In this document: positions 33,775 to 37,543 of the stretch, one piece after another | Numbering within the stretch: position 1 is the first letter of the stretch | Layout of the letters: every line of letters starts with the position of its first letter | From: a phage | Sequence record: PZ496581.1 | Length of the DNA: 64,000 nt | Direction: 5' to 3' (one strand) | The notes under the pieces: model-generated | What the model was told of the DNA's origin: nothing | The model's input: only the letters and a program-made list of their open reading frames with translations | The model's database searches: none | Position numbers and translations under genes: made by a program

Positions 33775-33998
33775 ATAGGCCTCCTGTTAATTTTGGCCAG
33801 TATTATTTTTCGCCTTTGGACGGCCTTAACATCTGCGAGGTATTTTTCCAGCTTGCGCTTGCGTGTATAATCAGCTTTAGAACCAGTTTGACGGATATCC
33901 TCGTTTAAATGAGAAATAGAATGTCCTAATTCTCTTCGGATTTCATCCAATTGGGTTACAGTAAGATTACGAAGTTGTCTTTCGTTTAATTGCTGCAT
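33765..33998 (-). CDS. hypothetical protein, 77 aa
   Basis: ORF track. Confidence 0.45.
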
Positions 33999-34025
33999 AT
34001 ATACCTCTTGGTTAGATATTAGTAT

Positions 34026-34607
34026 TTATAACAACCCTGTCAAATCGTTCCAATGCTTCCGGCATAATGACACATATCTATCGGTATCACCAATTTCAAT
34101 TTGACTGCCATCTGTAATTGGAAGTCCGTCTTCCGTGACTCTAGCTACCATTGTGGCCTTTTTACCACAATGACAGACACCTTTAAGTTCAACAAGCTTA
34201 TCGGCAATAGCCATTAATGCTTGAGAACCTTCAAATAGATTACCTTTAAAATCTGTTCGTAGTCCATATGCCATTACCGGCACATTGTATACGTCAACAA
34301 TACGACTAAGTTGATACACCTTTTCAGTAGTTAAGAACTGAGCTTCGTCAACAAATACACAGTGAATATCCTTTTGTGCTGCAGCCCATTTATAGAATTC
34401 AAAGATATCCATGTCTTTTGTAATTATATTGGCATCCTGACGAATACCAATACGAGAGACTATTTCACCTTTTGAATCGCGAGTATCAATAGCCGGTTTA
34501 AGAACTAATACACCCATGCCACGTTCTTTATAGTTATGTGCGGCAGTAAGTAATGAAGCAGACTTACCAGCGTTAATAGCGGCATAGGTAAAAATTAAAC
34601 TAGCCAT
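34026..34607 (-). CDS. tk: thymidine kinase, 193 aa
   Basis: P-loop AINAGKS, VDEAQF, C-terminal Zn motif CHCG...CRKH. Confidence 0.92.
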   Translation of the reverse strand: MASLIFTYAAINAGKSASLLTAAHNYKERGMGVLVLKPAIDTRDSKGEIVSRIGIRQDANIITKDMDIFEFYKWAAAQKDIHCVFVDEAQFLTTEKVYQLSRIVDVYNVPVMAYGLRTDFKGNLFEGSQALMAIADKLVELKGVCHCGKKATMVARVTEDGLPITDGSQIEIGDTDRYVSLCRKHWNDLTGLL

Positions 34608-34616
34608 AAGAGTCCC

Positions 34617-34799
34617 TTATAGTGAATTCACGTAGTCAATGAGTTCTTGTTCTTTCCTGTCAAATGATTCCAACAATGCTTGATATCCTTCGTCCGTCAA
34701 AGGAGCATATTCATCATACGCATTGGTGGCTGCTTGCTCATCCAATAGGTCATGGATAAGTTCGAACAGTTTAGTTTTCTCTTCTTTAGTCAATTTCAT
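34617..34799 (-). CDS. hypothetical protein, 60 aa
   Basis: ORF track. Confidence 0.4.
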   Translation of the reverse strand: MKLTKEEKTKLFELIHDLLDEQAATNAYDEYAPLTDEGYQALLESFDRKEQELIDYVNSL

Positions 34800-35023
34800 T
34801 TAGGTTCACCTTCTTTAACGAAATCTGGGTAAGGGTAAAATCCTGAGTAAAACCCTTCACCTTTATGATTGCTACAACCTTTGTTCGAACAGTAACACCA
34901 ATAATCAAAATCACAAGCCATTTCGTCATTGCATAAAGCAAAAACTACAGGCCATTCGCATTTTTCGCATTTAGCACCTGTAAGAATTTTTGTTTGACTC
35001 ATAGCCATGTCACCTTTAAGCAA
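34796..35023 (-). CDS. Cys-rich small protein, 75 aa
   Basis: ORF track. Confidence 0.45.
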   Translation of the reverse strand: MLKGDMAMSQTKILTGAKCEKCEWPVVFALCNDEMACDFDYWCYCSNKGCSNHKGEGFYSGFYPYPDFVKEGEPK

Positions 35024-35226
35024 TATTCTTCTACATGTTGTTTACGGCCTTTCTTATCAATAAAGGTATATTCAACGAATGTTCCGATGTAGTCTTTATC
35101 TACATCATGTGGACTATTAATTGGACATTTGGTACGACAAATGCGTTCCCATTGACGAATAATTACTGCCTTATTCTTTGGGTCATATGGATGTGGATAA
35201 TGTATATTCATAATAACGGTTCCCAA
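34999..35226 (-). CDS. hypothetical protein, 75 aa
   Basis: ORF track. Confidence 0.45.
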   Translation of the reverse strand: MGTVIMNIHYPHPYDPKNKAVIIRQWERICRTKCPINSPHDVDKDYIGTFVEYTFIDKKGRKQHVEEYCLKVTWL

Positions 35227-35705
35227 TCAACAATCACAATTTCTAGTTTAGTGGAATACGTATCTAAAATCTCTTCGATGACATCCCAGTTTCCACCACC
35301 AATACCTGCACCAATTCTTGGCATATAAATTACAGGCTTTGTTATCTTATTCTTTCCGAATTCATTTAATTCTATTATACAATTCATTAAAGCAGAGTAC
35401 TCAAAATTAGGTCCAGGCTCAAACTGTGTATAAAGATTAAAGCAATAAGCTTTATGGGTCTTAAAATATTTTTCATAAACCGAATAAGTCCCGAGTTTAG
35501 ACTCGTCTCCGAATTCTGTTTGAAGTTTATCGGCTTCCAGAATTTTTGGATAAGCCTTTGCTAATTGTCCTGCCACACCAGCGCCCATTGTATGAAAACA
35601 ATTACATCCATGAGCAATATTATTACCTTTAGAAAACAGGGCGACAATATCGCCCTTGATATAGTTTTTAATCACTTGCTGCAAGTCCTCTAGTATAAGA
35701 GTCAA
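35208..35705 (-). CDS. macro-domain protein (ADP-ribose binding/hydrolase candidate), 165 aa
   Basis: AHGCNCFHTMGAGVAGQ and PRIGAGIGGGNW resemble the two macro-domain glycine-rich loops. Confidence 0.6.
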   Translation of the reverse strand: MTLILEDLQQVIKNYIKGDIVALFSKGNNIAHGCNCFHTMGAGVAGQLAKAYPKILEADKLQTEFGDESKLGTYSVYEKYFKTHKAYCFNLYTQFEPGPNFEYSALMNCIIELNEFGKNKITKPVIYMPRIGAGIGGGNWDVIEEILDTYSTKLEIVIVDWEPLL

Positions 35706-36015
35706 CTAGACGGTCCACCATAGAATTGCATGCTGCCTTATCTTTAGGTTCCGCCACCGAGCATTCTAATATTTGCCATTTTTTATAGTATCTTTTAATT
35801 AAGGTAGACGCCTTGAACCTACTAGACGCCCCATCTTTTTCTCCGTCTTTATACGCATATAACAATTTTTGTGAAAAATCTACTTTACACTCTTGACTTT
35901 TACCACAGTAATCAGACGCCGTTCTGTTTGTATACTCCGTTACATCAGTATATGTAGTATTAGCAAGAGCGTTAAATGAAACCAAGCCAACTATTAAAGC
36001 CAACATTTTGGTCAT
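35668..36015 (-). CDS. exported Cys-containing protein, 115 aa
   Basis: Signal-peptide-like MTKMLALIVGLVSFNALA; 4 Cys in mature part. Confidence 0.5.
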   Translation of the reverse strand: MTKMLALIVGLVSFNALANTTYTDVTEYTNRTASDYCGKSQECKVDFSQKLLYAYKDGEKDGASSRFKASTLIKRYYKKWQILECSVAEPKDKAACNSMVDRLVDSYTRGLAASD

Positions 36016-36554
36016 TCTTTTATTTCCAGTAGTTTATTTGATTTAAGGTAATTAGCCTTTTCTAGGACTTCAGAAGCATATTTACTTCCAGCACTTGTCT
36101 TCCATCCCGCATTATATGAGGATATAGCTTTTCTTATATCCCCATTATGTATATTTAACCAATAAGAAAATTCGATATAAGCCCATCTGGCTGAATTAGA
36201 CCGCTTAGATAGCATTTTCTTAATTTGGGCATCAGTCATATTATAACCAAGCTGGTTAATTCTTGCCCTCATTGTTGGTAGATAGTTTTGGAACATTCCA
36301 TACGCATGGTGACCTTTCTTATCTTTAAGATTAATACCGGCAGATGATTCTTGCCATAGTATTGCGGCCATTATGTATCCAAGTCCTTTCTTATGCATAT
36401 TTTCATGCGTTTTAAATTTTCCGTCCTTAGAAAACTGTTCCCCAAACTGATAAGCATAATTCAAGTTATCGAGTTGGACATTACTAAAAGTATGCTCGGA
36501 GCTATGTGCTGATAATGAAAGAGCAAATAGACCAGCGAGTAGTGCTTTTCTCAT
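36012..36554 (-). CDS. periplasmic lytic-transglycosylase-like (SLT-domain) protein, 180 aa
   Basis: Signal peptide MRKALLAGLFALSLSAHS; WQESS and YGMFQ motifs. Confidence 0.55.
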   Translation of the reverse strand: MRKALLAGLFALSLSAHSSEHTFSNVQLDNLNYAYQFGEQFSKDGKFKTHENMHKKGLGYIMAAILWQESSAGINLKDKKGHHAYGMFQNYLPTMRARINQLGYNMTDAQIKKMLSKRSNSARWAYIEFSYWLNIHNGDIRKAISSYNAGWKTSAGSKYASEVLEKANYLKSNKLLEIKE

Positions 36555-36562
36555 GTTTACCT

Positions 36563-37021
36563 CTAGATTTTAATCACTGCTTTAGAAGCTTTTCCCGGTA
36601 GTCGTTTACTGTTAATAATAGCCATTCTACATTGAAGAGTCTTCATTTTGAATGCCGGATTTTCGCGACAAACTGTAAGTCCTAACCAAAGATTTCCATC
36701 AGTTATTTCTAAACGGCCTGGGCGATATTCGACACCTTCGACAAAATCTTCATCAACATCTGGACGTGCCGGCATTGATAAAAATTCTGCAACTTCTTTA
36801 ACATGATTTTTTACTTTACGAAATAATTCAAAAACGTAATTCTCATCTATTTCTCTCTGGATGGCACGATCTAAGAGATGTTGAGAATACTTGATATGAA
36901 AGCCTGGTAGTCCAAGAGACTTTGCAGCATCTTTTATACTGGCATTTATTTTGCGGAACTCCGTTTCAAAGATTCGACGGAGTTTATTACGGCGGATAAA
37001 AACGTCTGAATTGATAGTCAT
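36563..37021 (-). CDS. regB: endoribonuclease RegB
   Basis: MTINSDVFIRRNKLRR...YSQHLLDRAIQREIDE...GRLEITDGNLWLG matches T4 RegB as recalled. Confidence 0.9.
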   Translation of the reverse strand: MTINSDVFIRRNKLRRIFETEFRKINASIKDAAKSLGLPGFHIKYSQHLLDRAIQREIDENYVFELFRKVKNHVKEVAEFLSMPARPDVDEDFVEGVEYRPGRLEITDGNLWLGLTVCRENPAFKMKTLQCRMAIINSKRLPGKASKAVIKI

Positions 37022-37049
37022 TTTGATTTCTCCTCTAGTTGACAGATCT

Positions 37050-37078
37050 ATAGTAACACAACTAGAGGAGAAGTAAAC
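37050..37078 (-). promoter_or_regulatory. early-type promoter of regB; spacer is a 14-nt inverted repeat of the regB RBS region
   Basis: Minus strand GTTTACttctcctctagttgTGTTACTATagatctgtcaactagaggagaaatcaaaATG. Confidence 0.55.
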
Positions 37079-37297
37079 TACTTTATTGATAAAATGGAGT
37101 TAAAGCCCAAGATTCTTTAGATACCATATTGGCGAAATGCCTCATCTCTTCGATTTGGCGACGACGCTGGTCAGCATAGTCTTCTTCGCCTTCTTCCTTA
37201 CAATCTTAAAGGTCTTCTTCAAGATACTTTAAGTATTCACTACAAATTTTGTTGACCTTTTCTTGGAAGTCCAATAACCCAGTAATAGTAGAAGCCA

Positions 37298-37543
37298 TTA
37301 GTATTTTTCCTCAGGCTGAAATACTGCGCGGCAAGCCCACATACTAGCTTCCTTTAGACGCTCTTTAGCACAGTTAAGTTGGGACAAAGCCGTCAGAGCT
37401 TCAGGAGTATTTGCTGATAATGCTTCTTCTGCCAGGGCGTCCAGAATAAGTCCTAAACGAACTTCAGCATCTTTGATAGCATTCACTTTGCCGATTTTGT
37501 CATCGGTGTGTGGTTTGTAACCTTTAATATCTTCAATCGACAT
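37298..37543 (-). CDS. hypothetical protein, about 81 aa
   Basis: Trimmed to internal Met MSIEDIKG. Confidence 0.4.
   Translation of the reverse strand: MSIEDIKGYKPHTDDKIGKVNAIKDAEVRLGLILDALAEEALSANTPEALTALSQLNCAKERLKEASMWACRAVFQPEEKY

Follow-up and report, generated by a model that had tools for sequence, protein, structure and literature searches.

Defence against phages by DarT-mediated ADP-ribosylation of DNA is widespread, and T-even phages counter it in several layers, with AdfA, AdfN, and Tk.4/AdfM. When a T4 transposon library was screened by HIDEN-SEQ on E. coli that expresses DarTG2, no gene other than tk.4 scored significantly, and T4 from which tk.4 had been cleanly deleted was sensitive to DarTG2 (bioRxiv preprint, November 2025, 10.1101/2025.11.20.689424). 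This hit fits the residual resistance of T4 without both adfA and adfN, which stays DarTG2-resistant (PMC11825919). The authors of the preprint described structural similarity of the product to the macrodomain of M. tuberculosis DarG and renamed tk.4 adfM, for anti-DarT factor macrodomain; they graded enzymatic removal of ADP-ribose from DNA only as one that 'seems likely', and found tk.4 to be dispensable for T4 on plain E. coli K-12 (10.1101/2025.11.20.689424).

A survey from 2022 reported macrodomains in 41% of myoviruses (PMC9503650). The name AdfM has also been given to gp104, a macrodomain of PhiKZ-like jumbo phages that strips ADP-ribose from thymidine-modified oligonucleotides in vitro and counters DarTG2 (PMC13309987). 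Among bacterial proteins, SCO6735 of Streptomyces coelicolor takes thymidine-linked ADP-ribose off DNA, probably via an activated water held near Val25. It does so without the DarG/TARG1 residues: Gln85 occupies the position of the lysine, and the Q85A variant is inactive (PMC9411070).

The locus described here lies in a window of 64,000 nucleotides (the whole stretch of DNA that was analysed; PZ496581.1) from a T4-like phage (Tevenvirinae), which is about 99% identical to phages APCEc01 and JK45. The gene is the syntenic ortholog of T4 tk.4 (adfM), and its product, 155 residues long, is a stand-alone macrodomain that falls into the TARG1/DarG/SCO6735 (ALC1-like) class. The gene is thus already known: it is annotated in related phages, and its T4 ortholog has been characterised functionally. 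The original prediction had not recognised it as tk.4.

The tk.4 ortholog and its genomic context

Over the 3.1 kb surrounding the open reading frame, identity is 99% to Escherichia phage APCEc01 and Shigella phage JK45 and reaches 95% or more in about 150 further Tevenvirinae records. The product goes by different names in these records, appearing as 'macro domain protein', as 'phosphatase', or as 'hypothetical protein', and GenBank records of ~99% identity already carry the first of these labels. The protein shares 85% identity with T4 Tk.4 (NP_049723.1) over 155/155 residues without gaps, and both are 155 amino acids long and encoded at the same place, between vs and tk.3. Gene order in T4 is tk, tk.1, tk.2, tk.3, tk.4, vs, vs.1, regB, and that of the window is identical, with tk at 34026-34607, vs at 35668-36015, and regB at 36563-37021; the arrangement tk...tk.3, tk.4, vs, vs.1, regB is common to T4, JK45, JS98, and the window. 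All family-invariant residues are common to T4 Tk.4 and the window protein. The two differ at 24 of the 155 positions, including residue 127 in the second glycine-rich loop, which is glycine in the window protein and lysine in T4.

The original prediction had assigned the macrodomain to positions 35208-35705, and these coordinates agree with the maximal open reading frame on the minus strand, which runs from a TTG at 35705 to the TGA stop at 35208 and comprises 165 amino acids. The reading frame and its stop stand; the start had to be replaced. Judging from the sequence comparisons, the likely start is the GTG at 35675-35673, giving a coding sequence of 155 codons at 35208-35675 (minus strand; stop codon TGA at 35210-35208). 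The TTG was dropped on three grounds. T4 has an in-frame TAG directly 5' of the tk.4 ATG. The N-termini are conserved: tblastn matches in phages of less than about 90% identity start at residue 11 of the maximal frame, and nearly all homologue N-termini among those listed coincide with the GTG position or lie a few residues from it at most, the majority reading M-I. Finally, near-identical phages are annotated accordingly, as in JK45 (~99% identical), where the coding sequence is given as 468 nt. The first 10 codons of the maximal frame (35676-35705, minus strand), located inside the 3' end of vs, are therefore probably not translated. All residue numbers below refer to the 155-residue protein from the GTG start.

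A putative Shine-Dalgarno-like GAGGA, read from the sequence, is located 10 nt upstream of the GTG (35686-35690, minus strand). The GTG start overlaps the vs stop codon by 8 nt (GTGATTAA), whereas T4 uses an ATG with an overlap of 4 nt, and at the other end the gene overlaps tk.3, its TGA sharing nucleotides with the tk.3 ATG (ATGA). A promoter and terminator scan of 33900-37400 yielded sites no more numerous than in shuffled sequence, and no dedicated promoter could be assigned. Within the gene, codons 7-13 contain an 8-bp GC-rich hairpin, AGGGCGAT-ATT-GTCGCCCT (about -13 kcal/mol; 35638-35656, minus strand), followed by the U-rich run GTTTTCT; this arrangement resembles a terminator, situated 20 nt inside the coding sequence. 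T4 has the identical stem, as do Dhakavirus JS98 and UGJNEcP4, the latter two encoding proteins of only about 57% identity. In Karamvirus, Jiaodavirus, and Roskildevirus, which encode different amino acids at this point, the stem is not retained, and there is no covariation; conservation of the hairpin may merely reflect the conserved KGDIVAL codons.

Several annotations in this region merit attention. In vB_Eco_NicPhage (OY726582.1; locus L001, 4209-4589) the same gene is annotated as a 126-residue coding sequence from the internal Met30, losing the H-G-C-N-C motif, and its product name, with the ending 'cyanophages only', suggests an annotation artefact. The JK45 record labels the vs.1 homologue 'endoribonuclease RegB', the real regB being the next gene. 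In the window, the vs.1 homologue (36012-36554, minus strand; 180 amino acids) has an N-terminal segment resembling a signal peptide (MRKALLAGLFALSLSAHS) and no Pfam match at E <= 0.001; in a number of related phages it is annotated as an SLT transglycosylase. Of the two small genes immediately 3' of the macrodomain gene, the tk.3 homologue (34999-35211, minus strand) matches DUF7202 with 131 bits, and the cysteine-rich tk.2 homologue (34796-35008, minus strand) matches the 'Phage zinc binding domain' PF23895 with 101 bits; both Pfam families were created recently.

Fold and predicted active site

Sequence and fold both bear out the macro-domain call of the original prediction. The protein matches Pfam Macro (PF01661) over profile positions 2-117 of 118, and its score of 28.1 bits exceeds the gathering cut-off of 22; PHROG 335 is matched with an E value of 7e-67. 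Searching the PDB with the single sequence returned BT1257, Poa1p, SCO6735, TARG1, and DarG, and a family profile built from 55 sequences recovered the same proteins with E values of 4e-17 for BT1257, 2e-16 for TARG1 (full length), 2e-14 for SCO6735, 1e-13 for M. tuberculosis DarG, and 5e-13 for Poa1p. AlphaFold2, run on the 55-sequence alignment with the T4 row left out, produced a model with a mean pLDDT of 96.0 and a pTM of 0.91. The predicted structure is a three-layer alpha/beta/alpha sandwich with a central mixed sheet, as in macrodomains, and Foldseek placed TARG1 first among PDB entries (E 2.6e-10), followed by Poa1p, DarG, BT1257, and SCO6735. The nearest neighbours in sequence and structure thus belong to the ALC1-like/TARG1-DarG-SCO6735 class, rather than to MacroD, PARG, or viral Mac1.

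Both glycine-rich loops on which the prediction had been based are present exactly as quoted, and they align with the corresponding loops of TARG1, BT1257, and SCO6735. Loop 1, HTMGAGVAGQ (residues 28-37; 35565-35594, minus strand), corresponds to the diphosphate-binding loop of macrodomains and aligns with CRMGAGIAVL of TARG1 and with the Pfam Macro profile. Loop 2, PRIGAGIGGGNW (residues 119-130; 35286-35321, minus strand), aligns with PRIGCGLDRLQW of TARG1 and PRIGCGLAGGTW of SCO6735. Two further motifs complete the putative active site: H22-G-C-N25-C26 (35598-35612, minus strand), and N80-L-Y-T-Q84 (35424-35438, minus strand).

Conservation is concentrated in these elements. Invariant among 55 phage and metagenome homologues are H22, C26, G33, A35, D49, G62, N80, Y82, Q84, P119, I121, G122, and G124, and at least 90% conservation is seen for G23, C24, N25, K60, L61, T83, and W130. 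In the best 80 of 379 cellular loci, H22, C24, N25, C26, N80, Y82, and Q84 are unchanged in all 80 homologues, of which only the N-x-Y-T-Q conservation is independent, given that the H-G-C-N-C and loop-2 motifs served as search patterns for the cellular scan. As an observation apart from these motifs, the invariant D49 (35529-35531) and the K60 conserved at 90% or more (35496-35498; both minus strand) apparently have no conserved counterparts in the alignments with BT1257 and SCO6735, and could be family-specific catalytic or DNA-binding residues.

The class catalytic lysine (K84 of TARG1, K80 of DarG) is absent. Aligning the family profile with TARG1 places N-L-Y-T-Q84 on Y-L-I-T-K84 and G-A-G-I-G126 on G-C-G-L-D125, so that the Tk.4 family lacks both members of the TARG1 Lys/Asp dyad; in their place stand G126, aligned with the catalytic Asp125, and Q84, the latter invariant in both the 55 and the 80 homologues. 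An hhalign comparison with the M. tuberculosis DarG macrodomain provides a further lead, setting N25 on N22 and Q84 on K80; the N22/K80 numbering of the sequence used agrees with the literature. The equivalence of Q84 and the class lysine also follows independently from the TARG1 alignment together with the residue roles given in PMC9411070.

The same position is a glutamine in SCO6735. We recovered the SCO6735 sequence from a PDB alignment by means of a chimeric query and aligned it to the family profile with hhalign, which set N80-L-Y-T-Q84 on N81-M-I-G-Q85, H22-G23-C-N on H24-V25-C-N, and the second loops on one another. The Tk.4 family accordingly carries the SCO6735-type signature, consisting of N-x-x-x-Q with glutamine at the lysine position and a second loop of the form G-x-G-[LI]-[AG]-G-G-x-W. 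Fragment searches were less informative: 50 residues around the NLYTQ motif gave no PDB match, and a C-terminal fragment aligned loop 2 of SCO6735 only. Given that SCO6735 is an active and accepted member of the class and likewise has no lysine at this site (PMC9411070), the absence of this residue does not exclude the Tk.4 family from the class. By alignment, the family is SCO6735-like at the presumed catalytic position. With both the DarG/TARG1 lysine and the TARG1 aspartate missing, activity would depend on the less understood mechanism of the SCO6735 type, and the chemistry is probably that of Q84 and a bound water, rather than the lysine-using chemistry of DarG and TARG1. The text of the HIDEN-SEQ preprint makes no mention of catalytic residues or of SCO6735 (10.1101/2025.11.20.689424), and the invariant glutamine in place of the catalytic lysine is what our analysis adds to it.

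The missing canonical lysine could also be taken to mean that hydrolysis is dispensable and that the product mainly binds or blocks DarT2 or the modified DNA in a stoichiometric manner, as an antitoxin mimic. There are precedents: the dead Q85A variant of SCO6735 still inhibited DarT in vitro, and did so more than inactive DarG or TARG1 (PMC9411070), and the phage factors AdfA and AdfB work by direct interaction with DarT (PMC11481870; PMC11825919). However, the window protein is without the C-terminal DarT-binding domain of DarG, and its putative active site (N25, Q84, and both glycine-rich loops) is invariant or nearly so in phage and cellular homologues (the cellular set having been searched for with the N25 motif and loop 2, though not with Q84), a pattern that resembles an enzyme and not a toxin-specific binder. 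We therefore consider inhibition by binding to be quite improbable as the main activity.

Proposed role in counter-defence and alternative substrates

Among the roles suggested by the original prediction, an eraser that counteracts DarT-type DNA ADP-ribosylation matches the published genetics of T4 tk.4, to which the window gene is tied by 85% protein identity and the same gene order. With a probability of roughly 0.7, we propose that the ortholog protects phage DNA from DarT2 by binding ADP-ribose and hydrolysing the thymidine-ADP-ribose bond with chemistry of the Q84 type. The product would be made along with the pre-replicative genes of the phage; early expression is suggested by the surrounding genes, which are tightly packed and co-directional and have overlapping stops and starts. 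Once the DarTG2 system of the host is triggered, the DarT2 toxin would place ADP-ribose on thymidines of single-stranded phage DNA and thereby block replication. The macrodomain would grip the ADP-ribose through its two glycine-rich loops and hydrolyse the bond using Q84 and N25, leaving unmodified DNA, and replication would go on despite DarT2. Of this scheme, we infer the de-ADP-ribosylation of DNA, the role of Q84, early expression, and the transfer of the T4 function to the window phage; the anti-DarTG2 phenotype itself is known from T4 only, from one preprint, and is carried over by orthology.

Labels such as 'phosphatase' and 'A1pp' reflect a different view, according to which the product processes small soluble ADP-ribose derivatives instead of DNA adducts, for instance ADP-ribose-1''-phosphate (as does Poa1p), O-acetyl-ADP-ribose, or ADP-ribose-based immune signals. 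These legacy labels stem from domain transfer and not from assays. Moreover, weak phosphatase activity is seen in vitro with many macrodomains whose biological role lies elsewhere. The only known phenotype of the T4 ortholog is sensitivity to a DNA-modifying system, DarTG2 (10.1101/2025.11.20.689424). The H-x-C-N-C motif, common to the Tk.4 family and Poa1p, and the absence of a recurrent neighbour at cellular loci mean that other substrates could come into question, yet we hold small molecules to be an unlikely main target.

T4-like phages encode ADP-ribosyltransferases, and it is conceivable that the product erases ADP-ribose marks from protein or RNA. Such marks could come from RNA-directed host toxins, or from the phage enzymes Alt, ModA, and ModB, in which case the product would serve self-regulation. 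The residue modified by Alt, ModA, and ModB is arginine, and its ADP-ribose linkage is removed by enzymes of the ARH/DraG type and is not known to be cleaved by macrodomains. The suggestion in the original prediction that the macrodomain regulates the phage's own marks finds no support. The transferases of T4-like phages are discussed in PMC9503650, and TARG1 and SCO6735 do act on ADP-ribosylated protein substrates as well (PMC9411070). Still, no such phenotype has been reported for T4 tk.4, which plain E. coli K-12 does not require of the phage (10.1101/2025.11.20.689424), and no transferase gene adjoins the ortholog in the window. We give this reading the least credence and regard it as very improbable. 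Removal of ADP-ribose from DNA, processing of small molecules, inhibition of DarT2, and removal of protein or RNA marks are not mutually exclusive.

Distribution, origin and comparison with known macrodomains

The window contributes one more copy of a gene with many relatives: of the 50,697 deposited phage records searched, 2,801 (about 5%) gave a tblastn match, and these are spread over many genera, including phages of Escherichia, Klebsiella, Salmonella, Pseudomonas, Vibrio, and Acinetobacter, as well as Felixounavirus and rV5-like phages. The glutamine in place of lysine suggests that the macrodomain lineage found in this share of phage genomes uses the less-studied variant of the chemistry. 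In prokaryotes, a scan of one genome per species returned 379 loci. The best 80 encode proteins of 35-45% identity, mostly from stand-alone open reading frames with a median of about 155 amino acids, a minority of maximal frames reaching 269 amino acids.

No recurrent partner gene was found when the 618 open reading frames neighbouring these 80 loci were clustered, the clusters being named by eye and representatives of four scanned with Pfam, without a dedicated DarT profile. Neighbours that do recur are housekeeping or lineage-restricted genes, namely a PLP enzyme, an alpha/beta hydrolase, rpoC/rpsL/fusA, and a gene of the endonuclease/exonuclease/phosphatase family. Descent of the family from a DarTG operon is not supported by this clustering. 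These data suggest that the phage family is probably akin to SCO6735, BT1257, and similar orphan bacterial macrodomains, rather than to a DarTG operon.

As a separate observation, the endonuclease/exonuclease/phosphatase gene (PF03372, 38.3 bits) is located downstream on the same strand in 7 of the 80 loci, including one from Roseovarius (L049, 5469-6668), and in four of the seven it begins 11-25 nt after the macrodomain gene. The pair could constitute a small DNA-repair operon; the seven loci are perhaps not independent observations.

Human TARG1/OARD1 (PDB 4J5R) is the best Foldseek match of the window protein, yet the K84/D125 dyad of TARG1 corresponds to Q84/G126. Bacteroides BT1257 (PDB 2FG1, 2AFC) is matched by both fold and profile. 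In the alignment with yeast Poa1p (PDB 6LFQ), an ADP-ribose-1''-phosphate phosphatase, H22 falls on H23 and T29 on S30, near loop 1, and G126 on F152; the region after the central strand and the C-terminal half are poorly aligned. The only PADLOC and NCBIfam matches are DarG models, with 33.2 bits in PADLOC and 31.9 bits for NF048014, the latter against an equivalog cut-off of 250 and over model positions 4-146 of 338, which correspond to the macrodomain part only. Nevertheless, the protein is not a DarG. The DarG macrodomain of DarTG2 (PDB 5M3E, 5M3I, 7OMU) has K80 where the Tk.4 family has glutamine, and DarG extends into a C-terminal domain that binds DarT, whereas the window protein ends after 155 residues; no DarT is encoded beside the window gene, whose neighbours are vs and tk.3.

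SCO6735 (PDB 5E3B) is likewise a stand-alone single domain. The two differ in that SCO6735 is encoded by a bacterial chromosomal gene under a DNA-damage promoter and the tk.4 ortholog by a phage, and identity between SCO6735 and the Tk.4 family is only about 24%. In SCO6735 the loop after the glutamine is mobile, exceeds its DarG and TARG1 counterparts by five residues, and carries Lys89 and Lys94 (PMC9411070); in Tk.4 this loop is five columns shorter than in SCO6735.

PhiKZ gp104 of the chimalliviruses is, like the window protein, a phage-encoded stand-alone macrodomain that bears the name AdfM and counters DarTG2. It keeps the DarG-type residues N23 and K78 (PMC13309987), whereas the Tk.4 family has glutamine at the lysine site, and the two independently named proteins appear to represent different branches of the class. 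We see about even odds that the Tk.4-type AdfM of T4-like phages and many others goes back to a stand-alone bacterial macrodomain that was recruited separately and has an SCO6735-like mechanism based on glutamine and water, and that it is not a captured DarG macrodomain. If so, the name 'AdfM' would span two mechanistically different enzymes, the lysine type of PhiKZ and the glutamine type of T4-like phages, and the latter, like SCO6735, might act on ADP-ribose adducts of protein or other molecules, offering counter-defence that is broader than DarTG2.
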